This document shows, piece by piece, positions 9,440 to 63,991 of a stretch of 64,000 nt of DNA. Under the pieces are notes generated by a model. It was not told the origin of the DNA, did not search any database, and worked only from the letters and a program-made list of their open reading frames with translations. Both the position numbers and the translations under genes were made by a program. Source of the stretch: a virus; IMG/VR virus record IMGVR_UViG_3300035670_000022, positions 64,001 to 128,000 of that record; one strand, given 5' to 3'. Position 1 is the stretch's first letter. Each line of letters starts with the position of its first letter.

Positions 9440-9500
9440 AGTTTAGACTCCTAATTTGAATATGAATACGAAAAGCCCCCGAAGGCGGGGGCAGTAGCAA

Positions 9501-10535: not shown

Positions 10536-11240
10536 CTATTTAGGACGCCGTCCGCTTCCGACCACTTTCGTGGTGGGAGCGGACTTTGCCCCTTTAGGGG
10601 CACCGCCCCCGAAGAGGGCGGAAACGTCCTCTACTGCAACGCAGTCGAGGGCGGCGTGCTCGGAGGGCTCTGCCCCTCCCGAGCCGCAAAAGACTGCATC
10701 ACTGCAGTCGAGGGCTGAGATATACAGCCCGTACTTGCCGCCGGCGGCAAGTTGGAACCGTACGGTTCCTTGCACCCACACAGGGTGCTCCTTTTGCCGA
10801 ACGGCAAAAGACTTCGAGTCTGCTTTAGCCTCGAAGTGATATTTGACCAGTTGGTCAAATATCTCCTCTGCCCCTTCTGGGGCAGAGTCGAACGCCACCT
10901 TGGCGTTCAACGTGAACCATTGGGGTTTACCCCCAAGGTTCGCGTCCTTCTGCGGAAGGACGGATTTTGGGTCGACAGACCCATAATCCACAGCCTTTCC
11001 GTGAAGGCTGATGCACGTAAGTGCAAACGACAGCACGTAAGTGCCGTCGTCGTACAGCGACGCGTCGGTAACGGTAAGCCCGAAGGGCTTCCGTTGACCG
11101 AAGAGATCGGGACCGATCTCTATGCAACTGTGTCCCGTTAGGAGACACAGTTGCATAGGCAGTCCGGAGGACTGCAGGTAGGCAGCGGCTGCTGCTTTGT
11201 CTTCGCCGAAGGTGGAGATAACGGAAGTGACGGTAGTCAT
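10536..11240 (-). CDS. Hypothetical protein with basic C-terminal tail
   Basis: Two promoter motifs upstream; terminator downstream. Confidence 0.8.
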   Translation of the reverse strand: MTTVTSVISTFGEDKAAAAAYLQSSGLPMQLCLLTGHSCIEIGPDLFGQRKPFGLTVTDASLYDDGTYVLSFALTCISLHGKAVDYGSVDPKSVLPQKDANLGGKPQWFTLNAKVAFDSAPEGAEEIFDQLVKYHFEAKADSKSFAVRQKEHPVWVQGTVRFQLAAGGKYGLYISALDCSDAVFCGSGGAEPSEHAALDCVAVEDVSALFGGGAPKGAKSAPTTKVVGSGRRPK

Positions 11241-11452
11241 GACGTTGACGGCTCGTAGAGCCGTAAGAAAGTGCTTGCACTTCTCTCTGTTTCTCCGGAC
11301 CCGAAGGGTCTGGAGACTCTCTCGAAGAGAGAGTTAAGAGTGCTTGCACTCTTCTCTGTTCCGCTCGTTAGAGCGGCATAGAAGACTTAGGGACCCGCGC
11401 GGAATAGGTAATGAGTTAGCTAGTTAGCGGGGCTAACTAGCAGAGGGTGATA

Positions 11453-29459: not shown

Positions 29460-30251
29460 ATGACACAGTTGACTGTCCCGCAAACTTCTTTGTCTTATGA
29501 AGAGTTAAACGCTTTACTCCGCTTAGAGTTGAAAAAATCAGACAGTGGCTATCTATGTACGGTTAGGGGTCTAGCTCGATTATTAGGGCTTAGTGTTTCT
29601 ACTATCGTAGATTCTAGGAAACAGCAGAATGGTATACCAAGGGGTGTGCTCCGCCGTTTGTTTGAGTGTTCGCCTAGCATTTTGCCAGAATCGCTACAAC
29701 CTATATCAGGCTTTGATTACAGGAGTTCTGCGTTGTTAGGTAAGGCGAACACTCACACATATCTGTTACCTGAAGTTGTTGTTTCAGGTGTAATCAAGTT
29801 TTATGCGTATGATGCGCGTAAGCCAATTCAGCGAGCTAAGCAACTTGATTATATGCTGAGCGCTATAGGTATAAGAGCGTTGTTTGATAGAGTTATGTCT
29901 TCTGAGTCGTCTTCTTTTGCTGTAGCGGCATTAGAGGTGACTTCTCCTGCTACTGAGGATACGCCGTGTGACAAGTTACTTTATCTCATACAGAAGCTAG
30001 AGTCTTTAAGATTTAGGCGAGAAGAGATTGTTTCCATATTTCGTACGAATGGAGTCGTTCAGCAGGAGTCTGGAGGTAATAGTTCCTATCGTGGTGTAGT
30101 GCCACATAAGAAGAAGTGGCGGGCGCAAATTAATGTTAATGGTGCTACTAGAGTCATTGGTGGCTATGATACCGAAGAAGAGGCAGCTAGGGCATATGAT
30201 GCATATGCTAAGGTTTTGTACGGTTCTGCTGCAAAGTTGAATTTTTGTTGA
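29460..30251 (+). CDS. DNA-binding protein with C-terminal AP2 domain
   Basis: SYRGV...KWRAQI...GYDTEEEAARAYD...AKLNF is an AP2 signature; N-terminal domain paralogous to 24516-25136. Confidence 0.85.
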   Translation: MTQLTVPQTSLSYEELNALLRLELKKSDSGYLCTVRGLARLLGLSVSTIVDSRKQQNGIPRGVLRRLFECSPSILPESLQPISGFDYRSSALLGKANTHTYLLPEVVVSGVIKFYAYDARKPIQRAKQLDYMLSAIGIRALFDRVMSSESSSFAVAALEVTSPATEDTPCDKLLYLIQKLESLRFRREEIVSIFRTNGVVQQESGGNSSYRGVVPHKKKWRAQINVNGATRVIGGYDTEEEAARAYDAYAKVLYGSAAKLNFC

Positions 30252-35093: not shown

Positions 35094-35630
35094 TTAAGCC
35101 TCGATGATTAGCTTGAAAGTTTGTTCAACGTCTTCTTGCACTTCTATAGGAGAGAAGTTCTCGTAATAGAGTGGAATCGCATTTATGTCTGATGGTAGAT
35201 AAGAAGCGTAACAACGACTCTTTATGCTTTCTATATCAACTACCGAGTGAATGATAAACACTCCTAACGAGCGAAATGCCGGTTCTGGTATCTGGTTGTG
35301 AGGCAGTTTTACTTCTAAGTAAAGTTTGCTTATTTGCTCTCGTCTTATATCAAGTATGGTCGGGTCATCCATCAAAAGAATATGTTTGCCGTCAATAACA
35401 ACAGTGTCTTGGGTAGCACTTGACTTTTGAATTGCTGCTTTTCTGATCGGTATAGGAAAATAGATAAATATCTCGTTTAAGTTAAAGGTAAAAAGATCCG
35501 GCGCGGGGGGAACTGCTTCTATGCTCCAGGGGCTGGTCTGTCCTAGTCCTAAGAGTAGCGGAAAGCAAGGGTCCAAAAATCTCTGGAGCCGTCTGTAATT
35601 AATTTCCTTAGGATAGCCTTTGGTTGTCAT
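35094..35630 (-). CDS. Putative baseplate wedge-like protein
   Basis: GLGQTSPW...PP, LYLEV, FRSLGVF pattern typical of phage baseplate proteins. Confidence 0.5.
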   Translation of the reverse strand: MTTKGYPKEINYRRLQRFLDPCFPLLLGLGQTSPWSIEAVPPAPDLFTFNLNEIFIYFPIPIRKAAIQKSSATQDTVVIDGKHILLMDDPTILDIRREQISKLYLEVKLPHNQIPEPAFRSLGVFIIHSVVDIESIKSRCYASYLPSDINAIPLYYENFSPIEVQEDVEQTFKLIIEA

Positions 35631-38600
35631 TAATCCTCGCCCTGCTCTATAGGTAGACTCTCTTCTTCTTCCAGCATACCTTCGGTAATCATGACGCGTT
35701 CAACTGCTGACAGGCTAGTATTATCGTCGTCGAACATAAAGTCACCTTCTGCTAGGATCGCCTCGAGAGATTCACCGGTATAGCCATCTGTGATGTCTAT
35801 ATCTTCTCCGTTGATTGCTTCTGCAAGTGCTCTTCTTGATGCGGCAATGACATTATCTTTGACATTACTTACTGCCTGCACTGTCAGATCAAAAGCGGCG
35901 TCGTAGGTAAAGTCTGTTCCGGTAATTGGACGCTTGGTAACTACATTGGCTAGCGCCATACCTACAACCCCTCCCATTACTTCTAGTGCTCCCCTACCTA
36001 GGACACTGTCATCTCTTAGCAGTCTAGTGTTTTGCGCGAATTGGGATGAGGCATAGGCACCAGCTGTGTTCAATGCTTCAAACGCGACGGACTGAGCCAA
36101 CCCGGCTGGTTTACCTTCGGCACTAAACATGAACTCTCTAGCTCTAGCGACCCTTAACAGGTAGTTGGCTCTTCCTGTATTTCTCTCTGCGTCTTCCTGC
36201 TCTTTTTCTAAGTAGGAAGTTTGAGTCGGCTTTTCATCAACATCTGGTTCTATCGTTTGGGCTGTTCTAGCTGCAGTGCGGCGCTGCCGTTCAGTCCTTA
36301 CTGTATCTCGTGTTAACGGCTCGTCAGGAGATATCGTGACTGGATTCTCTACTTGTCTGTTAGGGGGTCTTAAAGTTTCTGCTAACACTGTGCCGCTACC
36401 CTCGCCGCTTAAGATTCTTTGAGTAACGCTTCCCTGTTGTTGACTTAAAGTTAAAGCGGATTCAATCATATTTCGAGCCAGCTCAGCTACTCGATCAGTT
36501 ATAGGTACGTCGCCGCTCATGACACTAAAAAGAAGTGGAACGGCTAGTAGGGACAATGTGTTGCTACGCACCTGTTTCTGGTAAGCCTCTTCTTGAACCT
36601 TTGTTATATTCTGAGACTTCTTCTGCATATGCTGCGCTTTGATACTTTCTGCTACATTCTTCCCAATCTGCTCTTGAACGTCGTTCAGTGCTTGCGCTAC
36701 TGGGTCGAAGTCTTCGTTAAGTCGGTTGACTGCCTCTTGCGGGTTGGACTGTACACTCTCTAGACGTTTTTGTCTTTCTTCCCTATATCGTTTGATTACA
36801 TCAAGGGTCTCAGATGCCTCTTCGTCTGAGGCGCCTTCCTGGATGCGCTGCCGCGCTTCAAGTTCTAGGTCATTTAAGGCAGCTAGTTCCTGTTGTATTT
36901 TGCTAGAACTGGCACTGACCACACTTTTCTCTGCAATTATTTCTGCTACAGACTGTCTCTGAGTCGCTCCTGTTTCAACTTGTGTTGTTAAAATTTCTCC
37001 CAGAGTAACCAAAGACTGTCTTACTAACTCGTCTGCTCTTGATGTGTCCCCACCGGCTCTTTCTTGAGCCTGTTGTTGGATGAACTCCATTAAACCAGGC
37101 AGAGATGTACCGCCTCCAACTGCTAGTAAAGCACCTACTGCTTCTGCAGACCCACCTACGCTTTGAACTTCTGTCGCTAATCGGAAGATACTTTCGTTAA
37201 ACGTCGTACCTTCTAGTTTGCCCCTAGAGATGTTGTATAAAATTGCTGTTTGAGCAATTTCATATTGTTGGGCTGTTCCCGGTGTCGCATATTGTCCGCT
37301 CTGTAGTCCTTGTACCGCTCTATTTAAGGAGATTAGCTGGTCAAATAATCCAGCCTCTGTATCTGTCCCCACGTATATCTGAGCCTCGCGTTGAGTTTGA
37401 TACTCAATCAGAGATCTAAAGACCTCTTCGCCTAGTGTTGTGTTCGCATTACTGTCTGCTCTTGTTGCTGCGGCAGCAATAACGTCTCTTACTCGTTCTT
37501 GTTCTGCTCTCCAACTTTGAGTCCTACTGTTTATGTCTGCTTCAACGTCTTTGGTAAGTTGACTAGCACCATCTGGCATTTGCTGCTCATATATTCCTCT
37601 TAGCGTCTCTTCATAAGCAAGCGTTCTTGTTCGTAGATTTTCCTCTGAGTATCCGTCTTGTAGACGTTCAGCAAATTTCTGCAGCATTGGTTTGTAGTCT
37701 GCTGCTTCCAGCACGGCGTTATAAATGAACTCGCTTCTGAATTTTGCCAGACTATCAGCCAGGGTGGTTTGAACAATAAACTCGTCAGTCGGAATCGGTC
37801 TATCTGGATCTTGCTCTATCATCTGTTCCTTTCTCTGTCTAAAGAAACCAGCAAAGGTGCTTTCTTTTAGCATCTCTGTCGCTGTTTTCTTGCCGCTCAG
37901 ATACTCGTTGACCATTTCTAGTGCTGCAAAGACTCGCAACTCTGAAGTGTCTAACTTGTTGTCGCTCACAACGACCTTTCCGTCTTCTTTAAATTCAAAC
38001 CCGTAGTCTTGTGCTAAGACAGCCCCGGCTCTCGTACCTATGAAGCGTTCCATTACTTTAGACCGCTCTACTTCGTCTACGGTATTCATAATTGTGTCTA
38101 GTCCAACTAACGTCTTTCTTTCTCCTGATTGGGTCTCATAGGTATACTCAAATTCTGCAGCCTCCAAGGCAACAGACCCACCTTTCTTCGGTTTTAAGGC
38201 GGCGTCCCGCAGGAATTGTTGAACATCTAACAGTAAACCAAAAGTGGCATTAAGGCGCTTCTGTGTTTCTGCTTCGGCAATTTTATAGGGGACGGTTTGC
38301 TTGTCTTGATATTTTTGGAGCAGGTCATTAAAGATATCTAGCTGTGTTTGCGCCGCTGTTTGTTCTTTTGCTGTTTCTGCATTTTGCAGTCTTTGTCTTA
38401 GCACTAGCTGTTGTCGTTGCAGCGCTTCTACAAATGCTGTACCCATCTTGTCGTCTGTCCCATCGGCCGCCTCTTTCATTGCTCGCATAGAGGCTAGGTC
38501 TGACACTGCCATGCCTAATAGAGGCACCACTGTGTTGTATGTTTTACCAAGTAGTCCTGTACCTGTAGACCCAACGATGGCTTGGATGTTAGCAAAGGCG

Positions 38601-41600
38601 GAGGTGTTTAGTAAAGAACCAGCGACTTTGCTACTTACCTTACCTAAGTCTCCTAACGCTGCCAGTCTTTGACTCATTAAGGCGCTAAACTCAATTAACT
38701 TTTGGCTTTTCTCTTTGATTGATGCTTGGTTAAAAGACCGTAGCTCTGCGTCTGTTGAGTATTCGATAAAGTCTTTACCTACTTTATTGAGTGTCTCTGT
38801 ATATGCCTGCTGCAGTTTATCATCGGCGGCACCTTCTCTAAACGTGATTCCTATATCTTGATTTAAAGTGATATCGCTGACTGTTGCTAAAGCTCGTCCC
38901 AAAGATGATTGGACTTTATTTTGATTTCCATAGAAGTTAGCCTGCGTGTCTCTAGACTGTTTAATTAGAGACGGAATATCTTCATCAGTGATTGCGCCCA
39001 CTCCGTAGGAAAGTCCTTCCATAAACTCAGCAGGTAACGCCATAAAGTCAGTAATGTAGTTACGGACTTTTTCGACACCTCTGTTTTCTACTTCTTGTCG
39101 GAGTTCAGCTAAGACTTCTAACTTCTCTACATAGTCGTTGATTGTTTGTGTCAGTTTATTCAAAGATCGGGTTTGAGCGCCTACCGCAGACATTCTGATA
39201 ATGCTGTGTGGCGCATCTTGGTTTTCTTCTGAGGCATAGAATTCTGCCTCTGCTTTTTTGACTTTGTCGAAGGCGTCAACAACTTCTCTTGTTGAGTCAG
39301 CCATTTTTGTAAAGGCTGCTTGGAAACTATCCCCGTCATAGTCCCCTAACTGGGTGAACTGGAATCCTAAGGACGAGATGAACATTCCAGTGTTTGATGT
39401 TGCTAGATCAGGACTTTGTAAACTGCCGAACAGCTTGGCACGTTTAGCCATCTCTTCAGGAGATATCTGTTGATGAGCGTTCCCAAAAGTATGGAAGGTA
39501 CCGCTAGGAGCCCCCTGTCTGTTAGCAGTTACCATGCTGCGGAATACCACCGATTCAAGTTGTTTATATCCGTCGTCTGTTGGCTCCCCTCCTATATCAG
39601 AGATCAGCGCTTCTTTTAGATCCTGCCCACGTACATAGCGACTTCTAGGCTCTTCTCTTGGTTTTGCTGCATTCTCACTTTCGACAGCTCCTGCTGCCTT
39701 TTTAGCGTTTGCTGCTTCTTCTGCTGCTTGAGCCGCCTGTTGCTCTTTTTGGAAAACAGGTTCTTTAACTCGTTCTAGTAAATCTTCATAGCTAAACGTT
39801 TTAGCATCTGGACCCTGAATCACATCCGACAGGTTTTGCAGAATATTTGCGGTTAGCTGCGCATATTTAATGGTGCTCTGTACAATTCGGTTTTGGCTGT
39901 TTGGGTCAAGTATCAAGTCGTTGACTAGTCGCTGACGATCTTCTCGAAGTCGGCTTATTTCTGCGGATGACTCTGGGTCTGTAGCTGCGCTCAACTCTGC
40001 TATGCGATTATCTATTCTGACTGTTTCAGAAGACACTGCTTTTTGATGACTGTCTATTAAACGATCAACAATCGTGTCCATCAGCGTTCTAAGCCCAGAG
40101 CCGCTATTCTCTTTGAGAAGTGTATCTATTCTTGAGCCTAACGCTACCTCTGACTGACCGACTAAGAAACTGTTCATCGCAATAAACGAAGATCCTGTCA
40201 GACTTAGACGATCTGCCATAGTTTGTCTAAAGGTGTCTTTGTTTTTGGACAGATGTAATGTTTGCTCTTTTGCTATCTCAGCGCTATTAACTAAGGTGTT
40301 ATACACGTCGAGCTGCTCAGCGGATAAGTTAACTTCACGTCTTTCCATAACAGCTTGAGCCATTTCTTCAAACAGACCCGTGTCGTTTGCTCTAGCTAAA
40401 CTGTCCGCTAAACCATATTGGGCTCTTAAAGCCTCATGGGTGTGTCCTGGAAATACTAAAGACATTCTCTCTAGAACGTCTAGTCCTAGCATCCAGCCTT
40501 CAATCTCAGTTTCAGGCATGATTTGCGCTTTGTATGTTCCTTCATCTGTTGGACTAGGCTGTATTTGCAGCACAGGAATCGTGACACTGTAGGTTTTGTC
40601 CACGGAGTCGATAATGGAACGTGCTCTAGACTGTTCCTCTGTTGTGCCTAGTCCTGCTTCTAAGAACTGTCTGGCATACTCTCTTAACTTTTGCTTTCCT
40701 TGAATATATTCTTTACCTGGGTCTATATCCGCAGACTGCTTAAGTTTGGTATCGACTTCATTTTTAATTAGGTTATACAGAAGTCTCTCTTGGATCTCCG
40801 GCGCATCTTTAATATATGCAGATACTCGCTCTTCGATGCTCGTTAGATTGTTGATAAGAGTAGAGGTTTCGGAAAGTGTTTGAGACGCGGTTAGTCCTGT
40901 TTGTGTCTTGAGGACTTCTTTGAATTTCTCTCTCAAAAGAAGCTGTACGAAAGCCGTACGCTTTGTATCTGCTGAGAGTCTTGTCAACTCTACTTCTGAC
41001 AAGGAGCCCGTTCCGTCTCCTAACACTAGAGCCATCTCAGTAAATCCTAAACTGGCTAGCTCTAATTGATCTTCAACCGGTAGGGAGCGGATGGTTCCTT
41101 TTTGCTCTTTAACAATTTTAGCTATATCCTCTTTTGTAGCGTTATCTGGAACGGCTATTTTTCTGGATTTAAGAATGGCGATCGCCCGCTTAGTTGTGTC
41201 AGGACTTAATTTGTCTGCCCAGTTTTCAATAGTTGCATCTGCTTCAGTAACCCCGGGGTCATTTTCAATGAGGGAGCTACTAAACATAGCTGCTTCCACC
41301 TCTTGTAGAGAACTCAGCTGACTTAGGGCTCTGTCTGTTATACCGCTTAGTAAATCCTCTACTTGCCCACCGACTATAGTCTCGGAGTTTTTGAGACGAC
41401 GTAAATAGTCTTTTGTAATAGCTCTGGCTCTTTCTGTTCGATCTAAGTTAGTTCTATCGCTAGAGACTCGTCTAGACCACTCCATTTGTTGAAGAGCAGA
41501 TTCATATCCTTCTGCATCGCTGCGGATAAACTGAAAGAAAACTTCTTCTGCCGGAGCGATATCTTTAGCTCGGCTGCTTACATATCTAGGAAAGACGTTG

Positions 41601-44600
41601 TCTCTAGATCGAGCAGTAAAGTCTCCGTAAGACTGGCTAAAGGACAGGCTGAAGACGTTTGTCTCTACCTCTTGCTTGATTGCACGCCGCATTCTGTTAC
41701 GTCTAGCTCTATCTCCGGCGGTTTGTGCATCGATTCCTGACTCAGATTCGTTTTCTAAGTCGGTGTAGTTTTTGTACCCCATTAAGATAGCGTTGGTTCT
41801 TCTGATGCTGTACATCTCGCTGACGTCTGATTGGTCTAGAGTTGTGCCTAGTCCTTCTTGCAGCATGCTGCCCAGAATAACCATGGTCTGTTGTAAAGAC
41901 CTCGCTTTTTCTTTATCATCTCCGCTGTATGTATATAGCTGAAGCTGCTTATCAGTTAGAGCATTTGCGTAATGTCCTTCTAGAGCAGTGGTATCTTCCA
42001 TACCTGTCGGCACGGTGATTTTGTTGATGGTCATGTCAAAAGGCAGAGCCATTCTTAATCCGAACTGCCCCAGACCTCGCATCATTGTCAGAGTATTTTG
42101 CAGCTCGTTTTGTAGTGTTTCTAGCTCTGACGCTTCGGTATCTGTTCTAGAAGACTTGTCTTGCAGCTTCCAGATTCTTTCTATAGAAGGCATTTCTATC
42201 CCTAAAGCTAGGGTTTGCTGACGCACAGCTTTTCTGTATACGTTTGCCTCTTTGCCGTACTCTTGGTCTCTATAGAGTAAAAGACTCTCTGCGTCTAGTC
42301 CTCCATAATTCATAAAGATCTCAGTCAAATTCTTTCTAATTCCAGGAGTATAGGCTTTACTCATAAACAGATCATTCTCAACGCCTGCGGCATTCATGAG
42401 CCCCTCTATCGACTTATCCTTAAAGTCAATCGCCGTGTCGCTCATGTAGGCGATCGACTGCTTTTTCATTTCTTCTAGGCTTGATATCTTTCTTTCATGG
42501 ACGGCTTTTTGCATGGGATTTAACTGTCCTTTTTCGTTTTCTATGCCGAGTATGATTTTGTTAAAGACCGTGCTTATCTCTCTGTCGACTTTTCTAGCCA
42601 CTTCTTCGTTCTTTAGATAGACCCCAAAGAAACCGTCTGTGTTGTACGCAATTTCTGTCACTGCTTTTCCTAACAAGCGGCGTTCCGGATTGATATCAGT
42701 TAATACGTCTTTTGCTGCATTTAGGAAGAAGGCCATTACGCTGGCTGATCGAGACTTGGTCTCGTCGTAGTAGTAACCTCCATCAGGCATCTGTTTCCCA
42801 TACTGGTCTCTAGTCGTTTTAAAGAGATTTTCTGTTTTTTGTGCCAACTTAGCTCTGGCTGCATCACCTTCTTTTCCTGCTTTTAAAGCGGCGCCTATGG
42901 TATCTATAAGTGCTTGCTCTGGTGTCTTGCCACTTTCAACTTCTCCTTCATCTACAAGACTCATTATCCCTTCGTATACAGCTATAGTAGGCGCGAAGTC
43001 TCTTTGCAGTTTATCGCTTTGGTTTTTCTGCGCCAGGTTTTTAGCTGATGCTGTTCCTTCTACTATCAGTTTTAGTGCTGATTGGGCTTGTCTTCTGTTG
43101 CTAATAGCGCCGCGCTCATAGGCCCCTTTAAGCAAAGCAGATATCTTATTCGTTTCTGTAGCACCACTTGTTGTGTCTCCTAGCATCATCAAGGATAATG
43201 CCTCTGCAATTTTGTATCCTGCTGTCTGTTGATCCGTATCTGTTATCATCTTCCAGGTGTTTGACTTTTCGCCTTCACGTAGAAAGCCTAATCCAGCCTT
43301 AAACACAAAGCCTTTCATCTGCCCCATAGTTATGGCTGCAAAAATCTCTTTGCCGGTAATCTCAGTTGGCAGATTTTCATAGCCGACTTCTGAGCCGTAT
43401 ACGGCTCCTATTTCAAGAAAGTAGTCTCTATTCGTTCCTTTAAACGGACCTTTAGCCTCTGCCGTCCGCTGGCCTGTTTTGAGATCCGCAATATTTACCA
43501 TCTCTAAGTTATAGGTCACCATGTTTGACCTTAAATCCTGCTCACTAGACGTTGGCGTCTTATACAGGTAACTGATGGCATTCATCTCTCTTCCGCTATA
43601 AGCCGGGGCTTTAACCCTAAAGGGTTGGATTCTAGACTTCTCTCCTAGACTTGTATAAGTATTAATACCATCTATGTAAAAGGCGTTCTCGCCGTCATTC
43701 AGGCTGCCTATTTTTTTAAGCCATCCATCTGTAGATGACTTCATTTGATAAACGCCTTTCTTGAGAACGAAGCCTCCTTCTCTAAAATCTACAGCTTCTG
43801 CAAAGGAAACGGATTTATGCCCCTCTTGACTAAGTCGACGCATCTCTTTAAGCGCCTTCTTGATATCTGCCGATTTGAGATTCTCCATTGAGAAGTCTTT
43901 ATCGATGCTGTATTGCATCTCACCTATATCACTCGTGAGTTTTATGAAAGTCAGCACCTTATTTTCTAGTTGTCTATTTGTCTCGCTAAGGTGAGGCGCG
44001 TCTTGTAGTTTTACGTCTCTAGCTACAAAGATAGTTCCCACTTGTAATTTTTCCCGTATGAGCGCATTAAACTGCGCCGGGGTCATATTCATCTCTTTAG
44101 TAGATAAAGCTGTTTGAGACCGGTAGGTTTTTAAATAGGCATTTTCATTCGAGTTTGCATACTCGGTGTTGAGATAGCTGTAATCAGACATCTCGTTGAT
44201 GCCCATATTGACCATTACAAGTTTGGGAGCCTCTATGAAACCCTGAGTCACTTCATCTGTATCTATGGCGATACTACGGGCATACTTGACTATGTCCGCG
44301 TCTGGATTCTCCATTTGGTATTTTTTCAACAGCTCAAATTGAGCCGAAGGCAGACCGAAGGGTATTACCCCTCCTACAAGATCCGAGCCTTCTATATCTA
44401 TACCCGCCTTAGCCGCTTCTTGGGTCTTCTGCATAAATCCACTTTCATCTTCAGCCCCAAAAGAGCGTAAGAAAGAGGCAAAGTCTAGGTTTGCAGGTAG
44501 AAACGGTCTGACTGACTTTAAGTTTTTAAGTCGTTGTATGTTTTGCTCAGTTTTGTCATAGGGGGTGTAAAGCATAACTGCCTTTTGTTTAACCCGATCC

Positions 44601-47599
44601 CAAGAGCCTTCTTCGATTTCTTCTTGTTTACGCTTTTCTAGAGCAAACACAGTGTCGAGAAGTTGTTGCCCATAGTCACTACTTGAGTCTATTCCCATTG
44701 CATCTAGGCGGCGCGAGTAGTCTGCGTAGGTAAACATAGATAATCCCTGAATGGAGTTAAACAGCTGCATGGAATACGGAGTAGACACGCCGCCTTTGAC
44801 TTGAACTAAGCCACCTAGCATTTCGTCTGGGTTTAGAGTTGTCGGGCGGGCACTCTCCGAGGCACCGCGCAGTAAAGGTAATCCATCTTTGTCCGTTAGA
44901 TACTCTGTGTGTTCTACGGGCATCTCGCTTAGCAAGAAGCCTCTTGTGTAAATAAAGTCATCCTTCTCGCTGAAGTGAATATCTTCTACTTCTGGGGTTA
45001 ACCCGTATAACGGGCGCTTCCATGCAAGTTGTCCTTGGCTGTAACTTAACTCATGGGATTGCGGATAGATCTCAATCAATCTGGTATACAGCTCACTCTT
45101 GCGCTGCTGCATTGTTCTCTTGAAGAAGCTACTTGCTACTGCATTAAACGAGATGACGTTTCCTACTTCTTGACTGCGTTTTGTTATGGCTCCTACGTTT
45201 TTACTTAGCACTAGCTCTTTGTATGTGCTTAACTTTTGTTGGGACTCAGCTTCGGTAAATCCAGCGGATCTTAGTGCTAACAATGTTGCGCTGTCGCCTT
45301 GCTCTAATAACTTCTTCAGAGAATGCAGCATTATTCTCGTATTTTCTTCATACGCCATGCCCTGATTCATTGTGTAGACAATGCCGCCAAGTACCTGCAG
45401 AGCGTCTAGAGATACACTTTCTCCTGACTGTATGACTTTAGGGCCGCTGCTGCGATTATACGTATCGAACATGGCTGATTCGACTGCAACTGTCCTTGTG
45501 GATTTGTTCAACCACTCCATACCAGTAATGACGCGGTTACCTTTGTTGATATAAACTACGGGCACTTCATTAACGACTTGCTGTCCCGTCATCGGGTCAT
45601 ATCTCGACTCTTGCGTGCTGCCTATGGTCACACTAAACCGGAATACGTTTTTCAGGACGATGTCTAACCCGGTTGCTTCTCCTTGCATGTTGTATCGTTT
45701 GGAGAATCTAAATGGGTGTGATCTATCTTGTTGTCTACTTTCTTTACCCCCCAAAGCGGTGAGCATCTCTACGGCTGCTGAGACCTGTTTACTGTCTCCT
45801 TTACTTTCTACATAGAGTCCCCTGTTTGACATCTTTGACATCAAACCACTTCGGTAGTAACTCAGCGTCTCTTCGTTGTTGAGATTTAGGTCTTGGATAT
45901 CTCGTTCACCTAGGAAGATACCTGCTTCAATGTTTCTTGCATAGGAAGTAAACGATAGGTTAGCAGACGAGACTTCTAGCATCTCCAGTTTGTCTAACTC
46001 TTTACTCAGGACCGCAAAGCCTTTAGAGTGTCTGAGTTGTGTTGGAGCAATGGAGGCAGAGCTGCTTATAATTTCTTTGATTCTTGCTTTTGTCTTACTT
46101 GAGTCTTCCTCTCCAAACAGATCAAATACTTGTTTGTCGTCGTTCAGTCGGTCGAAGATGGAATATATACCCTCCCCTTCGTTGCGGCTGTTCTGTGTTG
46201 TGACTAACGTTAAACGTCCTTGTTGACTCAGACTTTCTATAACCTTGAAGAAACTTTTTTTATAGGCTAGAAAAGCAGACGACCCTTCTTGGTCTGTTAC
46301 TCCGTGTTTAGCCCCGAATAGAGTCGACTCTAAATATTGTACGGATAGAATTACTTGAGACTCTGACGGTGACTTACTGAGTCTTCTCAGATGTCTTAAA
46401 CGTGTTTCGTGAACGTCTCTATTTAGTTTGACGAATTGACTTGTCTCTTCTAGAGTGCTTTCAATCAACGACTTTCTAAATGCCTGTTGAGTTAAGCGTC
46501 TAGCCCCAAGAGACGTTAAGTCTTTACCCGCAGTGCTAAACATTGCATCTGTGGCGGCGCCTATTTCTCTTAACACAGACAGCATCTTGTCTTTGGCTTC
46601 TTTATTGCTATCGGCAACCATGTCCATACTCAAGAAGAGAGCCTCTTCAAGAGAGTCTCGGTTACGCAGCGTATCCGTTCTGTTTTGGCTTCCTATGGTA
46701 CCGGCAACGATATTCTTATTATCGTCATAGTAGTAACCTAACTTGGCGTGGAAGGCAGGGGTTATTAATTGACCTTCATTTCTCAGAGTCACTTTATTGG
46801 CGTTAACATTGGTGCCTTCAAAAGCCGAGAGGCTAACTTCGTTACCTCCTAACACGCTTAGCATTCTTTTTGTAGCGTTTTGACTCTGTTCTTCTCTATC
46901 CTTAACGACTATCGGACGAACACCTTGGGTCAATATGTCTGTTTTGACCTCTGGCCCTCGACTCATTAATCCACCAATATAGGAAGATTCTTGAAGTTGA
47001 TAGACAGACTCTCTTAGGTTTAGTCCCTTGTGCTCTTCTTGAAAGGCGTTCCAGTCTCTGTCGATAGGTCTTTGAACCAGACCGCGTGGTGGTTTATAGA
47101 GAGTGATATCCGACTGTTCTTGATTTGATCCGATAATCGAACCTGTTTTACCTATGGTTCTGTTGTAGATACCTGTTCCAGTGACTCTTACTGAATTTCC
47201 ATACCGGCTATAAATACTCTGATTGATGACGGATAGTTGACTTTGCCTGGCAGACAGACTAGAACCACCCTGAGCGCCGTATACAGCGTCTGCTGCTTCT
47301 CCTATATATTGCTTAGCAGAATTGTAGGGTTGCAGCCCTCCTGATTCGAAAGAGTTGAACTGATCTCGGATTGGACTGTTATGGTCCATGTTCCAAGCGA
47401 TGTGACTTTGCATAGAGGCCTGCACGCCTCTTGCCCTACCCGGGTCTCCACCCTCATCGTCTTGGGTGATGTATTGATTTGCTTCTTCGTTTAAGTTCTC
47501 TAGGTCTTCACCGGCACTACTATCCTCGTCCTCTGCATTACCAGCAGAAGCCTCCAACTCTTGTTCTGGGTCGTTATAATTTGTGTCCTCTTCTCCCAC
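35630..47599 (-). CDS. 3989-aa putative virion protein: tandem PLD domains, double-psi-barrel RNA polymerase core and helical tape-measure-like C-terminus
   Basis: HAK...D...GSQN (aa 284) and HSK...SSAN (aa 524); NRQGAP (aa 2693); LGDYDGD (D at aa 2753); Ala/Gln/Glu-rich helical C-terminus with hydrophobic stretches; structural gene context. Confidence 0.65.
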   Translation of the reverse strand: MGEEDTNYNDPEQELEASAGNAEDEDSSAGEDLENLNEEANQYITQDDEGGDPGRARGVQASMQSHIAWNMDHNSPIRDQFNSFESGGLQPYNSAKQYIGEAADAVYGAQGGSSLSARQSQLSVINQSIYSRYGNSVRVTGTGIYNRTIGKTGSIIGSNQEQSDITLYKPPRGLVQRPIDRDWNAFQEEHKGLNLRESVYQLQESSYIGGLMSRGPEVKTDILTQGVRPIVVKDREEQSQNATKRMLSVLGGNEVSLSAFEGTNVNANKVTLRNEGQLITPAFHAKLGYYYDDNKNIVAGTIGSQNRTDTLRNRDSLEEALFLSMDMVADSNKEAKDKMLSVLREIGAATDAMFSTAGKDLTSLGARRLTQQAFRKSLIESTLEETSQFVKLNRDVHETRLRHLRRLSKSPSESQVILSVQYLESTLFGAKHGVTDQEGSSAFLAYKKSFFKVIESLSQQGRLTLVTTQNSRNEGEGIYSIFDRLNDDKQVFDLFGEEDSSKTKARIKEIISSSASIAPTQLRHSKGFAVLSKELDKLEMLEVSSANLSFTSYARNIEAGIFLGERDIQDLNLNNEETLSYYRSGLMSKMSNRGLYVESKGDSKQVSAAVEMLTALGGKESRQQDRSHPFRFSKRYNMQGEATGLDIVLKNVFRFSVTIGSTQESRYDPMTGQQVVNEVPVVYINKGNRVITGMEWLNKSTRTVAVESAMFDTYNRSSGPKVIQSGESVSLDALQVLGGIVYTMNQGMAYEENTRIMLHSLKKLLEQGDSATLLALRSAGFTEAESQQKLSTYKELVLSKNVGAITKRSQEVGNVISFNAVASSFFKRTMQQRKSELYTRLIEIYPQSHELSYSQGQLAWKRPLYGLTPEVEDIHFSEKDDFIYTRGFLLSEMPVEHTEYLTDKDGLPLLRGASESARPTTLNPDEMLGGLVQVKGGVSTPYSMQLFNSIQGLSMFTYADYSRRLDAMGIDSSSDYGQQLLDTVFALEKRKQEEIEEGSWDRVKQKAVMLYTPYDKTEQNIQRLKNLKSVRPFLPANLDFASFLRSFGAEDESGFMQKTQEAAKAGIDIEGSDLVGGVIPFGLPSAQFELLKKYQMENPDADIVKYARSIAIDTDEVTQGFIEAPKLVMVNMGINEMSDYSYLNTEYANSNENAYLKTYRSQTALSTKEMNMTPAQFNALIREKLQVGTIFVARDVKLQDAPHLSETNRQLENKVLTFIKLTSDIGEMQYSIDKDFSMENLKSADIKKALKEMRRLSQEGHKSVSFAEAVDFREGGFVLKKGVYQMKSSTDGWLKKIGSLNDGENAFYIDGINTYTSLGEKSRIQPFRVKAPAYSGREMNAISYLYKTPTSSEQDLRSNMVTYNLEMVNIADLKTGQRTAEAKGPFKGTNRDYFLEIGAVYGSEVGYENLPTEITGKEIFAAITMGQMKGFVFKAGLGFLREGEKSNTWKMITDTDQQTAGYKIAEALSLMMLGDTTSGATETNKISALLKGAYERGAISNRRQAQSALKLIVEGTASAKNLAQKNQSDKLQRDFAPTIAVYEGIMSLVDEGEVESGKTPEQALIDTIGAALKAGKEGDAARAKLAQKTENLFKTTRDQYGKQMPDGGYYYDETKSRSASVMAFFLNAAKDVLTDINPERRLLGKAVTEIAYNTDGFFGVYLKNEEVARKVDREISTVFNKIILGIENEKGQLNPMQKAVHERKISSLEEMKKQSIAYMSDTAIDFKDKSIEGLMNAAGVENDLFMSKAYTPGIRKNLTEIFMNYGGLDAESLLLYRDQEYGKEANVYRKAVRQQTLALGIEMPSIERIWKLQDKSSRTDTEASELETLQNELQNTLTMMRGLGQFGLRMALPFDMTINKITVPTGMEDTTALEGHYANALTDKQLQLYTYSGDDKEKARSLQQTMVILGSMLQEGLGTTLDQSDVSEMYSIRRTNAILMGYKNYTDLENESESGIDAQTAGDRARRNRMRRAIKQEVETNVFSLSFSQSYGDFTARSRDNVFPRYVSSRAKDIAPAEEVFFQFIRSDAEGYESALQQMEWSRRVSSDRTNLDRTERARAITKDYLRRLKNSETIVGGQVEDLLSGITDRALSQLSSLQEVEAAMFSSSLIENDPGVTEADATIENWADKLSPDTTKRAIAILKSRKIAVPDNATKEDIAKIVKEQKGTIRSLPVEDQLELASLGFTEMALVLGDGTGSLSEVELTRLSADTKRTAFVQLLLREKFKEVLKTQTGLTASQTLSETSTLINNLTSIEERVSAYIKDAPEIQERLLYNLIKNEVDTKLKQSADIDPGKEYIQGKQKLREYARQFLEAGLGTTEEQSRARSIIDSVDKTYSVTIPVLQIQPSPTDEGTYKAQIMPETEIEGWMLGLDVLERMSLVFPGHTHEALRAQYGLADSLARANDTGLFEEMAQAVMERREVNLSAEQLDVYNTLVNSAEIAKEQTLHLSKNKDTFRQTMADRLSLTGSSFIAMNSFLVGQSEVALGSRIDTLLKENSGSGLRTLMDTIVDRLIDSHQKAVSSETVRIDNRIAELSAATDPESSAEISRLREDRQRLVNDLILDPNSQNRIVQSTIKYAQLTANILQNLSDVIQGPDAKTFSYEDLLERVKEPVFQKEQQAAQAAEEAANAKKAAGAVESENAAKPREEPRSRYVRGQDLKEALISDIGGEPTDDGYKQLESVVFRSMVTANRQGAPSGTFHTFGNAHQQISPEEMAKRAKLFGSLQSPDLATSNTGMFISSLGFQFTQLGDYDGDSFQAAFTKMADSTREVVDAFDKVKKAEAEFYASEENQDAPHSIIRMSAVGAQTRSLNKLTQTINDYVEKLEVLAELRQEVENRGVEKVRNYITDFMALPAEFMEGLSYGVGAITDEDIPSLIKQSRDTQANFYGNQNKVQSSLGRALATVSDITLNQDIGITFREGAADDKLQQAYTETLNKVGKDFIEYSTDAELRSFNQASIKEKSQKLIEFSALMSQRLAALGDLGKVSSKVAGSLLNTSAFANIQAIVGSTGTGLLGKTYNTVVPLLGMAVSDLASMRAMKEAADGTDDKMGTAFVEALQRQQLVLRQRLQNAETAKEQTAAQTQLDIFNDLLQKYQDKQTVPYKIAEAETQKRLNATFGLLLDVQQFLRDAALKPKKGGSVALEAAEFEYTYETQSGERKTLVGLDTIMNTVDEVERSKVMERFIGTRAGAVLAQDYGFEFKEDGKVVVSDNKLDTSELRVFAALEMVNEYLSGKKTATEMLKESTFAGFFRQRKEQMIEQDPDRPIPTDEFIVQTTLADSLAKFRSEFIYNAVLEAADYKPMLQKFAERLQDGYSEENLRTRTLAYEETLRGIYEQQMPDGASQLTKDVEADINSRTQSWRAEQERVRDVIAAAATRADSNANTTLGEEVFRSLIEYQTQREAQIYVGTDTEAGLFDQLISLNRAVQGLQSGQYATPGTAQQYEIAQTAILYNISRGKLEGTTFNESIFRLATEVQSVGGSAEAVGALLAVGGGTSLPGLMEFIQQQAQERAGGDTSRADELVRQSLVTLGEILTTQVETGATQRQSVAEIIAEKSVVSASSSKIQQELAALNDLELEARQRIQEGASDEEASETLDVIKRYREERQKRLESVQSNPQEAVNRLNEDFDPVAQALNDVQEQIGKNVAESIKAQHMQKKSQNITKVQEEAYQKQVRSNTLSLLAVPLLFSVMSGDVPITDRVAELARNMIESALTLSQQQGSVTQRILSGEGSGTVLAETLRPPNRQVENPVTISPDEPLTRDTVRTERQRRTAARTAQTIEPDVDEKPTQTSYLEKEQEDAERNTGRANYLLRVARAREFMFSAEGKPAGLAQSVAFEALNTAGAYASSQFAQNTRLLRDDSVLGRGALEVMGGVVGMALANVVTKRPITGTDFTYDAAFDLTVQAVSNVKDNVIAASRRALAEAINGEDIDITDGYTGESLEAILAEGDFMFDDDNTSLSAVERVMITEGMLEEEESLPIEQGED

Positions 47600-47747: not shown

Positions 47748-48518
47748 ATGAAAAACGCTCGCGTTCAAACCATCCCTAAAGAGAAACTTAGCGGCGGATA
47801 TGCTGTTAACATCTATCGCCCTTTGTATAAGGACTATAGCCAAGCAATGAAGCTATACCCGGCTGAGTCTCGGGAGAATCCTAACGGACCCGGCTACACC
47901 TTTGAGGAATTTCTCTGTGCTTTATGCATCAGAGATGCTAATGGTGCTGAAGTTGACAATGCACCTAAAGACGCGATCGAGCGCTTTGCTCAAGTTCAGC
48001 TCAAAGATAAACAGTATATTAGCCGTACTTTTATTACTGCTTTCTTGATGACTCAAGACTTACAGGATGAAGCTGAAGCGCTGGCTGATACGCTAATGGA
48101 TATCGATCCCTATTCGTTAACCTATACGATTACCAAAGACCAGCTACCCTGGGGGAGTGCAGATTTCACTTTTCACCGACCCAGCTCTTCTGTACAAATC
48201 TCTGTAACCAAGAACTACACTTCGCCTCGCGTCAACGGCTGTGCATGGGAAGAGATGTTTCTTGTCTCTTGTATGCAGCAAATTAACGGCGAGGCCCTTC
48301 CGGAGACAGCTAATCCTATTAGCCACTTCTATGACCTGGAGGTGCTGGATGTGCAGTTTGTTGCCGCTACGTTTATTAAGATGTTCAGCATGGGCATGAA
48401 CGAGCGTAAAGACGCAATGGATTTGGGAAAGTCTTGGCGAACCAAAATTTCGCAGCCGTCTCCCGACTCCAAACCCAAAAGTGCTTCACTAAAGGCACCG
48501 ACTCCTTCTACAACCTAG
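47748..48518 (+). CDS. Putative tail assembly chaperone (gpG-like)
   Basis: In-frame G GGA AAG slippery site at 48425-48431; two internally repeated halves (FEEFLCALCI / WEEMFLVSCM). Confidence 0.6.
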   Translation: MKNARVQTIPKEKLSGGYAVNIYRPLYKDYSQAMKLYPAESRENPNGPGYTFEEFLCALCIRDANGAEVDNAPKDAIERFAQVQLKDKQYISRTFITAFLMTQDLQDEAEALADTLMDIDPYSLTYTITKDQLPWGSADFTFHRPSSSVQISVTKNYTSPRVNGCAWEEMFLVSCMQQINGEALPETANPISHFYDLEVLDVQFVAATFIKMFSMGMNERKDAMDLGKSWRTKISQPSPDSKPKSASLKAPTPSTT

Positions 48519-48973
48519 GCACCACTAGGACACCTAGTCCGGAGTGTCTTGAATGTACCTACTTCGATCTGTGGGGGGCTTTTTCTCCGTTACCGCAGTC
48601 TTACCCTCCCCTCCGTCTTAAAAATTTTGATATTTCTAAGTTGGAGTCTATACGGGTTGAACGGGAGTTTACTAAGATGTCTGCTTGTAAAGAGTGGAGT
48701 CAGAAGTTAGACCTTCCTGGGTACGTTCAAGTCTGTGCAGTGACCTACGTGACTTTGTTTGAGTGGCTTGGCTGCGACTCTTGGTTTTACCGAAAGTATG
48801 GCTTACCTGACATAATTCAGGAAGCACTCAAATATGAGTGTCGTCGCGTTGTTGACGACATTAATAAAAAGAGGGAAGAGGAAGTCACTAAGCTGAAGTT
48901 AGACGGTCAAACCGCTAATCGGCACTCTACCATGCGCACCGGGGCGAATCCTCTAGACAAAGTCTTTAAGTAG
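48434..48973 (+). CDS. -1 frameshift extension (gpT-like) of the tail chaperone
   Basis: Lies exactly in the -1 frame after GGGAAAG; only a TTG start without an RBS. Confidence 0.55.
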   Translation: MANQNFAAVSRLQTQKCFTKGTDSFYNLGTTRTPSPECLECTYFDLWGAFSPLPQSYPPLRLKNFDISKLESIRVEREFTKMSACKEWSQKLDLPGYVQVCAVTYVTLFEWLGCDSWFYRKYGLPDIIQEALKYECRRVVDDINKKREEEVTKLKLDGQTANRHSTMRTGANPLDKVFK

Positions 48974-48982: not shown

Positions 48983-50446
48983 ATGTTAAACGGCGACATT
49001 ATTTTTAGTGATAAGCGGCAAGCTAGGGGCAAGTTTTCACAGCAAGGCAGTTTTACCTTTCAAAACACCCTGCGCCGTCCCTTGCTTGCACAGCTTCGCC
49101 TATACGAAAGAATGTGGCGCCAAGATTTAACGATTAAGTCTGCGGTACAAGCCCGTACTCAATGGCTGTTAGGCACCATTGGTGAGGTCGAGCATCCAGA
49201 CAAAGAGATTGCTGCTTTTCTGAATAACAACATCAAAGAGTTACAACAGGAGAATGGGCGCTCTTGGACAGATATCTTAGAGGTTATTGAGCAGACTACT
49301 TACTGGAGTGGGTTTTCTGCTTCAGAGATCATGTTTGACCTTAAGTTTGGCGCTCTATACCTAAAAGATATTTTGACGTATCACCCAACCTCCATTGTTA
49401 TCCATGCGGATAAGAAGGGGCAGTTGGTTCATGGAAAAGAAACCATAGACGGTGTTCGAAGATCCGGCATCTGGCAGCTGTCTACGGGACCTCTATCTAA
49501 AGAGGTGCACTTAGATTTGTGGAAAGTCATTTATTTAGCTAATGAGTCAGACTATGGTAACTACTATGGTCGCTCTTTAATCGGTGCTTCTTATAAGTGG
49601 CATCGTCTTAAAGAGGCTCTTATAGACATGATGGCAGCCAACTTAGACAAATCTGGCAATAAGATGCTGTGGGTAAGAATGCCTAGTTACCCAACAGATG
49701 AGGTTCGTGTCAGTCCTACTACAGGAGAAGAAGCCTTTATTAACTCTATCGAGTTAGTTAAAGAGCAGTTTGAAGCAGCGGAGGGGATACCTGAAGTTGT
49801 TTTCTTACCTTATCAGCAGTCGGATATTAAACCAGAGATAGGGAGTGAGACTCTACAGGATCAAGTGGGAGACACCTTCATTAAGGCGATTGAGTACGCA
49901 GATCATCAATCTATCAAACACATCATTCCGTCTTTCCTGCTGGGCAGCAACATGACTGGCAGCGACTCTCAAAACTCTATAAAAGTCGAGCGTCAAGTAG
50001 AGCTATTCACAAACTCGATTGAGATGGATCGTAGTCGTCTCTGTAACGCGTTGGTGCGGAAGGTGTTTCAGCCTTTGATGGAGTGGAACTTTAGTCGGGC
50101 TTCGACTAAGGTACCTCCTACTTTTGCTCGGGTTTATTCAGATAGATCTGAAGACCGTGTTGCCACAATGCAGATGATTAAAGGTCTTGTTGAGTCTGCC
50201 GTCTTGAACCCGCGTAGCGATGAGGATTATCGCAAGATTATGCAGATGCTGCGTCTGGGTACCCGCGAGCGCACTAAGGACGATAAGTTATTTATTCAAC
50301 AAATGCTTATCACACCTAGAGAGAAGAATCCTCGACCTGACGATGTGGGTCCTAGTGGGTCGGGTTCTCCAGGTCGGACAACTGGAAGTCGTCCTAAACA
50401 AATTGATAAGAAAGAGACGCCGGCTCCTGCCAAGAAGGATAGCTAG
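48983..50446 (+). CDS. Portal protein (Mu gp29/DUF935-like)
   Basis: D.TIKSAVQAR, WSGFSASEIMF, GNYYGRSLI; size and context. Confidence 0.75.
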   Translation: MLNGDIIFSDKRQARGKFSQQGSFTFQNTLRRPLLAQLRLYERMWRQDLTIKSAVQARTQWLLGTIGEVEHPDKEIAAFLNNNIKELQQENGRSWTDILEVIEQTTYWSGFSASEIMFDLKFGALYLKDILTYHPTSIVIHADKKGQLVHGKETIDGVRRSGIWQLSTGPLSKEVHLDLWKVIYLANESDYGNYYGRSLIGASYKWHRLKEALIDMMAANLDKSGNKMLWVRMPSYPTDEVRVSPTTGEEAFINSIELVKEQFEAAEGIPEVVFLPYQQSDIKPEIGSETLQDQVGDTFIKAIEYADHQSIKHIIPSFLLGSNMTGSDSQNSIKVERQVELFTNSIEMDRSRLCNALVRKVFQPLMEWNFSRASTKVPPTFARVYSDRSEDRVATMQMIKGLVESAVLNPRSDEDYRKIMQMLRLGTRERTKDDKLFIQQMLITPREKNPRPDDVGPSGSGSPGRTTGSRPKQIDKKETPAPAKKDS

Positions 50447-50860: not shown

Positions 50861-51514
50861 CTAAACACCAGTATGCCCAAAGCCCCCCTTTCGGATAGTC
50901 TCATCCAGACACTCTTCTAGGACCTCTTCTGGTGTCCAGGAGCTTTGGGCAATTAAGATTTCGTAGGCACCTTGGGCAATGCGAGCACCGTGTCCAAAGA
51001 AGTGTGTAGATTTCCCCTGATTTTCTAAAATCACTCCTACATCATCTCGGTAGTAGCAATCGATTAACCCAGGCGAATTGGTTACAAAGATACCGTGCTT
51101 AGCCGCTAATCCACTACGAGAACTAATTCTGTAGCAGGCAGTAAATGGATCTGGCAGTTCTGGAAGTGCAATCTTAAATCCCGCTTTGATTACCCGTCGC
51201 TCTCCAGGAGGAAGTAAAACAAAAGCGTAGCCATCTTCTACTTTCAATGCAGATAGTAACGAGTTGTCTTTTAATGGCTTGCCGTTGACGTATATCTCCT
51301 CTTTGGGAGTGAACAGCTGCAGCTTCTTGAGTTCGTCTTTAAGTTCTGCTTCTGTTTTGTGCTGGGGAATCCAGGCCTTAATGTCTGCAGCGGCATCTTT
51401 TGCATGGGCACACTGGGGTAGCCACTCCGCACTCTCCGCTGTAAATCTTGGCATCAACAAGTCTTTAAGCTCTTGTAGAATACCTTGTTTCTGTATATTC
51501 GTGAAACTTAGCAC
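50861..51514 (-). CDS. dut: Trimeric dUTPase with an insertion after motif 1
   Basis: SRSGLAAKHG, PGLIDCYYR, RIAQ, RKGGFGHTG. Confidence 0.92.
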   Translation of the reverse strand: MLSFTNIQKQGILQELKDLLMPRFTAESAEWLPQCAHAKDAAADIKAWIPQHKTEAELKDELKKLQLFTPKEEIYVNGKPLKDNSLLSALKVEDGYAFVLLPPGERRVIKAGFKIALPELPDPFTACYRISSRSGLAAKHGIFVTNSPGLIDCYYRDDVGVILENQGKSTHFFGHGARIAQGAYEILIAQSSWTPEEVLEECLDETIRKGGFGHTGV

Positions 51515-63190: not shown

Positions 63191-63991
63191 ATGGCTATTG
63201 CATCTAATTTGACAGGTAACTCTGTTAATAACGGACGTCGTACTCCGTTTCAGGGTTTTGATGTATCTATCTATGTACAAGACCAAGCCACTGGCACTTT
63301 AATTCCGTTTGGCGAATTTACCGGGTTTCAACACGTTGTTCGTAACGCGTCTGAACCCTATCTTCCTTTGGGCAACCGCACCATGAACATTCTTGATGGG
63401 GAGTTTCAGATTGGTTGGGTTGCTGAGCAAGGCAAGATTAATCTGGAAGCTATGCGCCACGTTTTTGGTTTTTCTGTTATTGGTCCTGTGGTTCGCTTAG
63501 GGCGCTCGCCTCGGTTCCAGATCGTTGTTGAGTATAACGCTCCTGACTTAGAAGAAAAGCCTAACCAGAACAACCAGTTCTTGTATAACGATCTTTATGC
63601 TAACTCTTTGAATCCGACTCGTAACACTTATGGAGATGATGAAACGGAACCTACTGCAGAACAACTTACGAGTGTGCTAGAGTTAACTACTCAGGTATCC
63701 AATCGTGTAACGGCTGGTCGATACGTTTTTGGTTACTGCAAGATTGATGCGTTTACCACCGGTATTATGGCTGGACGGACGGCGGTTGCAGACCGAATTG
63801 AAGGGTTAGCCGAGACTTGGTATTGGCGTCCGTTTACTGGCGGTGAGACCCCTGTTTCCAAGAAAATTGTTTTGGATAATGAGGCGAACCAAAAATCTTA
63901 CTTTAAAGGTTCGGCGGGATTCACGCCGCTTCAAATTCCGGCTTGGGCATACGAGTCTTCAGGGACAGTTTATAAAGCTTCTGGCACATAA
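63191..63991 (+). CDS. Tail tube protein
   Basis: Directly follows the sheath; GEFTG...YLPLG pattern. Confidence 0.65.
   Translation: MAIASNLTGNSVNNGRRTPFQGFDVSIYVQDQATGTLIPFGEFTGFQHVVRNASEPYLPLGNRTMNILDGEFQIGWVAEQGKINLEAMRHVFGFSVIGPVVRLGRSPRFQIVVEYNAPDLEEKPNQNNQFLYNDLYANSLNPTRNTYGDDETEPTAEQLTSVLELTTQVSNRVTAGRYVFGYCKIDAFTTGIMAGRTAVADRIEGLAETWYWRPFTGGETPVSKKIVLDNEANQKSYFKGSAGFTPLQIPAWAYESSGTVYKASGT

Follow-up and report, generated by a model that had tools for sequence, protein, structure and literature searches.

The window analysed here, 64,000 nucleotides in length, comprises bases 64001–128000 of the 155.9-kb virus record IMGVR_UViG_3300035670_000022. It contains a giant ORF on the minus strand, which together with its 3' neighbour can be described as follows:

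35094..35630, minus strand: PF25691 gene (178 aa; baseplate wedge / tail fibre network family), its start codon abutting the stop of the giant ORF
35630..47599, minus strand: the giant ORF (P0001), a single ORF of 3989 aa with 0 Cys
35936..35992, minus strand: hydrophobic segment 2 of the giant ORF (aa 3870–3888, GGVVGMALA), glycine-zipper-like and conserved in P0002 and P0003
36497..36556, minus strand: hydrophobic segment 1 of the giant ORF (aa 3682–3701)
47435..47599, minus strand: acidic, low-complexity N-terminus of the giant ORF (aa 1–55)

The giant ORF starts with a GTG codon, 6 nt 5' of which lies a GAGGG Shine-Dalgarno sequence, and aspartate and glutamate together account for 20% of residues 1–124. 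Comparison of the whole protein with Pfam, PHROG and the PDB sequences returned nothing useful. A first description of this DNA, made from the letters and their translations (the sequence-only reading), had mentioned hydrophobic segments in the C-terminus and a baseplate-like gene 3' of the giant ORF; two such segments were found, at aa 3682–3701 and 3870–3888, and the gene at 35094–35630 does match PF25691 (E 2.3e-7). At its other end the giant gene is divergent from the genes for the portal (48983–50446; PHROG and Pfam matches), the protease and the major capsid protein. The last two, as well as the tail sheath (60221–63133, plus strand), each have a PHROG match, and gp25-like and gpJ-like baseplate genes and the large terminase are encoded outside the window; the source phage is contractile-tailed. 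In two related contigs, too, the portal gene, two small genes, the giant gene and the PF25691 gene follow one another in this order. Also found among the structural genes are an HNH endonuclease (PHROG 99; 29460–30251, plus strand) and a dUTPase (50861–51514, minus strand), and a further large ORF of 2296 aa with 0.87% Cys occupies positions 38382–45272 of the genome.

Two ORFs, 47748–48518 and 48434–48973, lie on the strand opposite to the giant ORF and adjoin the portal gene. They had been taken for a divergent G/GT chaperone, an assignment which we had to abandon: neither ORF has a chaperone family match, the sole XXXYYYZ run in their overlap (CCCAAAA, 48474–48480) is outside the –1 slippage register, and their equivalents in the two related contigs are separate, non-overlapping genes.

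Searched with a profile, 1.84 billion representative proteins yielded 86 matches, of which approximately 72 are giants of 2900–5400 aa. Members of the family are encoded at nine IMG/VR loci and on two Logan contigs, and among cultured phages the only relatives are the Microcystis myoviruses Ma-LMM01, MaMV-DC and MaMV-DH01. We found no paper on this family of giant proteins. The Ma-LMM01 member is gp080 (YP_851094, annotated as 'hypothetical protein'; 3562 aa), the gene for which holds the same position beside the head genes. It shares about 22% identity with the giant ORF across 448 aligned residues and has a DFDGD loop as well as the GKTYNT and RDA.KPK blocks; unlike the giant ORF, it has 1 Cys in its 3562 residues.

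The 72 giants contain 0 Cys over 285,434 residues. The other ORFs of the same phage have 1.18% Cys, and at that rate the chance of finding none in 3989 aa is 3e-21. The same absence is seen in the virion RNA polymerase (vRNAP) of phage N4 (gp50, 3500 aa) and in N4 gp51 and gp52, in gp96 of phage P23-45 and its four homologues (about 5000 aa each), and in lambda gpH; in phage phi14:2, gp66 has 2 Cys in 2180 aa and gp67 has 1. The N4 DNA polymerase and primase have 1.1–1.4%. In our reading N4 gp51 and gp52, which are encoded beside gp50, correspond to the two further ejection proteins of PMC13434306. Across the reference phages enzymes have approximately 0.5–1.4% Cys and portals 0–0.25%, and in the proteins known to pass along the tail channel Cys is absent or almost absent. 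Since zero Cys is common to N4 gp50, P23-45 gp96 and lambda gpH, it could serve as a simple marker for candidate tail-channel travellers.

Because the giant lacks Cys as the known ejected giants do, and because its gene abuts one of a baseplate family, its best reading is as a virion-borne, ejected protein, and we consider it very probable that it is carried in the virion or ejected. The sequence-only reading had proposed an ejected multi-enzyme, and the composition and the structural-gene context lend this good, if indirect, support. The protein might instead stay inside the infected cell, made late and neither packaged nor injected, for example as a replication or transcription scaffold. Published work on Ma-LMM01, in which transcription by the host polymerase is assumed, would suit such a role, but there is no obvious reason for a cytoplasmic protein to have dispensed with Cys throughout 285,434 residues, a trait which the ejected giants share, and the gene lies against a baseplate-family gene and beside the head genes. 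We regard an intracellular role as very improbable.

The N-terminal part of the protein carries a predicted domain of the phospholipase D (PLD) superfamily:

45668..47089, minus strand: predicted tandem PLD-superfamily fold (aa 171–644), from AF2, Foldseek and VIA-align
46646..46750, minus strand: PLD half-site 1, H284-A-K286...G-S-Q-N306-x-T308...E318
45923..46030, minus strand: PLD half-site 2, H524-S-K526...S-S-A-N547...N-I-E558, of the nuclease type GSxN..NxE

The two half-sites are exactly where the sequence-only reading had put them, the histidine codons being 46748–46750 (H284, HAK..GSQN) and 46028–46030 (H524, HSK..SSAN), and its N-terminal tandem PLD is now backed by a predicted fold and by invariant catalytic residues. 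In alignment A5, which consists of 46 sequences chosen for having both PLD motifs, H284, K286, N306, T308, E318, H524, K526 and N547 are all invariant, and the same eight residues are invariant in motif-selected alignments of 27–46 sequences at 15–57% identity. The AF2 model of aa 125–760 has a pLDDT of 77 and a pTM of 0.69. A Foldseek search with it matched 138 PDB chains at E<=1e-3 and, among the matches listed, all are members of the PLD superfamily (Tdp1, PLD, PLD3/4, F13, PssA or PPK). VIA-align superimposed the model on vaccinia F13 (Z 23.2, rmsd 3.7 A, 308 aa) and on the 5' exonucleases PLD3/PLD4 (Z 21.8), and one half of it on Nuc and NucT (Z 16). On these structural predictions the giant ORF almost certainly holds a PLD fold, and the module is probably active.

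As to its substrate, a profile search of the PDB sequences placed BfiI, NucT and MitoPLD in the top five, below significance, and all three weak matches align at the half-site 2 tail, GSaN..NiE. A GSxN..NxE tail is typical of the nuclease branch of the superfamily. These matches at a nuclease-type tail favour a nucleic-acid phosphodiesterase, towards which we lean slightly; a phospholipase seems unlikely. Both PLD motifs are present in 57 of the 72 giants, one in 8 and none in 7, and in Ma-LMM01 gp080 half-site 1 has Tyr instead of His while half-site 2 keeps H-V-K..GSSN. Some members can thus do without PLD activity, and this speaks against its being essential for penetrating the membrane.

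Between the PLD domain and the C-terminus a series of conserved blocks was recognized:

44507..44548, minus strand: block EQ.IQRLKN....RP (aa 1018–1031), with Q1019, R1023, N1026 and R1031 invariant
44168..44203, minus strand: block G.S.MSD..Y.N (aa 1133–1144), with G1133, D1139 and N1144 invariant
43289..43474, minus strand: G.R....KGP and Q.KGF.F..GLG blocks (aa 1376–1437), a candidate beta-like barrel with basic residues
40130..40237, minus strand: FRQ..DRLSLTGSSFIAMNSF block (aa 2455–2490), paired by HHalign with FRQNLLGKRVDYSGRSVI of beta' and LKTNGGSFIQLSNFGL of gp66
39506..39523, minus strand: NRQGAP (aa 2693–2698), with R.G.P nearly invariant and resembling NRAP of beta'
39329..39346, minus strand: GDYDGD (aa 2752–2757), a candidate metal-binding catalytic loop
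38519..38629, minus strand: KVAGSLLN....IQAIVGSTGTGLLGKTYNT block (aa 2991–3027), paired by HHalign with ARGS..QLAGMRGLM of beta'
38183..38221, minus strand: QQFLRDAALKPKK (aa 3127–3139), with Q3127, R3131, D3132 and K3136 invariant, in a predicted long helical hairpin

The RNA polymerase (RNAP)-like motifs of the sequence-only reading are among them: GQRTAEAKG starts at aa 1376, RLSLTGSS at 2464, SEVALG at 2483, NRQGAP at 2693 and GDYDGD at 2752; neither they nor the PLD half-sites are there by chance. Each of the 72 giants has a single copy of the motif GD[YFWN..]DGD, its second residue being aromatic in most. Alignment A4 (46 sequences) shows no variation at the named residues of G2752-D-x-D-G-D and very little at R2694, G2696 and P2698. 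The R.G.P element lies about 55 aa upstream of GDxDGD and FRQ..DRL..TGSS.IA further upstream, both being conserved; the full set of conserved blocks comprises FRQ..DRL..TGSS.IA, GS.GT.LLGKTYNT and QQ..RDA.KPK. Besides beta' NRAP, NRQGAP presumably also resembles the NRQP of Rpb1. Every sequence of alignments A6 and A8 has G3010, G3018 and Y3021, as every sequence of A4 has the two glycines, and the beta' segment with which their block is paired, ARGS..QLAGMRGLM, is one that we take to lie just before the bridge helix. Conservation in the candidate beta-like barrel extends to R1378..K1383-G-P and K1429; HHalign matched nothing in beta to this barrel.

Three HHalign runs against a beta' alignment had their best local matches at the beta' elements FRQNLLGKRVDYSGRSVI (also written FRQNLLGKRVDYSGRS; P 0.16), ARGS..QLAGMRGLM (P 0.048) and, with variable columns trimmed, NADFDGD (P 0.022); these P values (0.02–0.2) are weak and come from differing trimmings of one alignment. 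The three matches are collinear, standing in the same order in beta' and in the giant. The top match to the P23-45 gp96 family was the gp96 DFDGD (VDFDGD) loop (P 0.025), and in the crAss-like gp66 family a 20-residue block paired with LTGSSFIAMNSF, at a probability of 0.2%, which is not significant. Our own profile-chaining test of collinearity with beta' did no better than block-shuffled or reversed controls. No match to the Pfam RNAP models PF00623 and PF00562 was found in six frames of the genome, nor to any Pfam polymerase family, the T7 type included, in the giant at E<=1; profiles run against the PDB sequences, among them narrow ones at the catalytic loop and the KGP block, returned no RNAP. 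The AF2 model of aa 2340–3260 (27 sequences) has a pLDDT of 55.7; none of its motif regions reaches 50, it shows no barrel, and with this poor model Foldseek and VIA-align gave generic helical-bundle matches only.

The RNAP core put forward by the sequence-only reading thus stands as to its motifs, which are conserved and collinear, but it has gained neither a significant profile match nor a predicted barrel. The RNAP of P23-45 gp96, since validated, is equally undetectable by sequence methods, and had been recognized by DFDGD alone before it was tested biochemically (PMC10770324). Judged by its motifs, the centre of the giant is rather probably a two-barrel RNA polymerase core. A different account would make it an injected, polyvalent PLD protein with no polymerase, in which GDxDGD belongs to some other activity, as its metal-binding or structural loop. 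All the RNAP tests of sequence and fold, which failed or were non-significant, speak for it, and a second giant ORF with an NRAP..DDDGD pair of its own could be the polymerase of this phage instead. Yet every member has kept GDxDGD, the second residue being aromatic in most of them, and R.G.P and the FRQ..R..(S/T)G.S block accompany it in beta' order. Nor does a second polymerase candidate exclude the giant, as P23-45 has two two-barrel polymerases. We think this account unlikely and prefer the two-barrel polymerase for the centre of the giant.

The second giant ORF (11453–24001, minus strand) specifies 4182 aa with 44 Cys. Its C-terminus carries NADAR, AlkB-like 2OG-Fe(II) oxygenase, DUF4326 and PIF1-like helicase domains; NRAP is found at aa 2191 and DDDGD at aa 2267, 76 residues apart (about nt 17189–17431), a pair which recalls the two polymerases of P23-45. 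HHalign between the two giants was not significant. A 14-bp motif, AACAGAGAAGAGTR, which is unlike the sigma-70 consensus, is present in 18 copies (<=2 mismatches) where 1.6 are expected, 16 of them on the minus strand:

4717–11360, 22096, 30327 and 52140, mostly minus strand: copies of AACAGAGAAGAGTR, clustered among the small genes that lie downstream of the second giant ORF

The motif, which can also be written AACAGAGAAGAGTA, is a candidate phage-specific promoter, and both it and the NRAP/DDDGD pair of the second giant ORF would fit a phage polymerase. The transcriptome study of Ma-LMM01 reported sigma-70-like promoters and assumed the host polymerase (PMC5780444), the MaMV-DH01 genome was stated to be without an RNA polymerase, and the survey table of phage two-barrel RNAPs in the P23-45 paper includes no Microcystis phage (PMC10770324).

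According to the sequence-only reading the giant was also a tape measure, with PLD and virion RNAP fused in front as the RNAP is in P23-45 gp96; its C-terminal helices would lie in the tube and set the length of the tail. This part has not gained support. The gene lies outside the sheath-tube-baseplate module, approximately 12 kb from the sheath gene and on the other strand, not between tube and hub, and the protein has no M23 peptidase, which gp96 and its homologues possess. It matches no tape-measure protein (TMP) family of Pfam or PHROG, TMPs often being too divergent to detect. The tube is putatively encoded by the ORF at 63191–63991 (plus strand), the sole match of which is an unnamed PHROG, and the hub and baseplate genes are further downstream. 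After the putative tube gene come ORFs of 961, 166, 421, 207, 591, 539, 197, 148 (gp25-like) and 358 (gpJ-like) aa, none of which in this module has a TMP family match, a circumstance in favour of a tape measure elsewhere. The 961-aa ORF was discarded as a TMP, having 14 Cys, a composition which does not look helical and no TMP match. The ORFs of 591 and 539 aa (genome 133337–136746) are both Cys-free, and the latter, with no family match, has by eye the look of a beta-helix central spike. The position just upstream of a spike-type gene is the usual one for a TMP, and the Cys-free 591-aa ORF is a more conventional tape-measure candidate.

A third giant ORF (genome 145337–155913), truncated where the contig stops, specifies at least 3525 aa. 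Its product is free of Cys, contains several hydrophobic stretches and matches nothing in Pfam, and its homologues in Ma-LMM01 and the MaMV phages share 23% identity with it. Together the Cys-free 591-aa ORF and this Cys-free giant supply other TMP candidates. In favour of the tape measure are the baseplate-type gene directly after the giant gene, the two hydrophobic segments at the C-terminus and the lack of Cys, as in the TMPs lambda gpH and P23-45 gp96. Against it, in addition to the points above, the G/GT chaperones have not been supported, and as the RNAP motifs occupy aa 2450–3150 only about 850 aa follow them, which at 0.15 nm per residue fall short of the 260 nm reported for the tail of MaMV-DH01. 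A tape-measure role for the giant is, in our estimate, improbable.

The explanation that we prefer is that the product of the giant ORF belongs to a family of 'polyvalent' proteins of Ma-LMM01-like contractile-tailed phages, and would be packaged in the virion and injected into the host together with the DNA. Its N-terminal third would form a complete single-chain PLD site out of two HxK..(G/S)SxN half-sites, acting most likely as a phosphodiesterase on nucleic acid and less likely as a phospholipase. The centre, about aa 1000–3150, would most likely be a very divergent single-chain two-barrel RNA polymerase, the GDYDGD loop of which would bind the catalytic Mg2+. Like the virion RNAPs of N4, P23-45 and crAss-like phages, this enzyme may transcribe the first genes of the phage off the DNA as it enters. 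During ejection the helical C-terminus, with its two hydrophobic segments, might serve as an anchor, either in the virion or in the envelope of the cell. Taken as a whole, we hold this explanation to be a little better than an even prospect.

Virion RNAPs are known from N4-like, crAss-like, phiKZ-like and P23-45-like phages. A more far-reaching proposal, which we make tentatively and to which we give somewhat less than even weight, is that Ma-LMM01-like phages inject a Cys-free protein of approximately 4000 aa that combines an active PLD nuclease with a single-chain two-barrel RNAP of a new and extremely divergent family and, with the second giant RNAP-like protein, sets up a transcription cascade independent of the host and served by phage-specific promoters. 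If it is true, a further virion RNAP family which cannot be recognized from sequence would exist in Ma-LMM01-type myoviruses, a PLD enzyme would join the repertoire of injected phage proteins, and a larger set of two-barrel polymerases would be at hand for tracing the evolution of RNAP. It would also overturn the view of these bloom-controlling cyanophages as wholly host-transcribed (PMC5780444, PMC9927357).

Among known systems, the two-domain PLD enzymes (PLD3/PLD4, F13, Nuc/NucT, BfiI and Zucchini) resemble the N-terminal module of the giant in being bilobal and in having two HxK..GSxN half-sites, with VIA-align Z scores of 21.8–23 over about 310 aa and a sequence identity of about 10%. The giant differs from the classical half-site, HxK(x)nD(x)nG(S/T)xN, in that no Asp is conserved at +4 from HxK, and from all of these enzymes in that its PLD domain is embedded in a protein of 3989 aa.

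The closest parallels to the remainder are virion proteins. The tape-measure-fused virion two-barrel RNAP of P23-45, gp96 (PMC10770324), is likewise of giant size (5002 aa) and without Cys. Both proteins have a single D(F/Y)DGD loop, are undetected by family models and possess a helical remainder with hydrophobic segments. In gp96, however, the RNAP is N-terminal, with DFDGD at residues 779–783, whereas in the giant the motifs are at aa 2450–3150, behind the PLD module; gp96 has an M23 peptidase (PF01551 in all four of the homologues found) which the giant lacks; and gp96 is encoded at the canonical TMP position of a siphovirus, while the giant comes from a phage with a contractile tail and its gene is outside the tail module. 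The N4 polymerase has a T7-like right-hand fold rather than a two-barrel one, and the N4 tail is short; to our knowledge N4 gp50 has no PLD domain, and no sequence similarity was seen between it and the giant. With 3500 aa and 0 Cys, gp50 of N4 (Schitoviridae) is like the giant very large and without Cys; it is packaged and ejected and has its polymerase in mid-chain (PMC13434306). The crAss-like virion RNAP gp66 of phi14:2, which is of the two-barrel class, is Cys-poor and of very large size, and is a virion protein, as the giant would be. Upstream of its catalytic loop it has a G(G/S)SFI..(N/S)(S/N)F block which pairs with LTGSSFIAMNSF of the giant, the loop itself being DFDID in gp66 and GDYDGD in the giant. 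Fusions to PIF1-like helicase, AlkB-like and NADAR domains are common among gp66 homologues; in the present phage these domains are found in the separate 4182-aa ORF.
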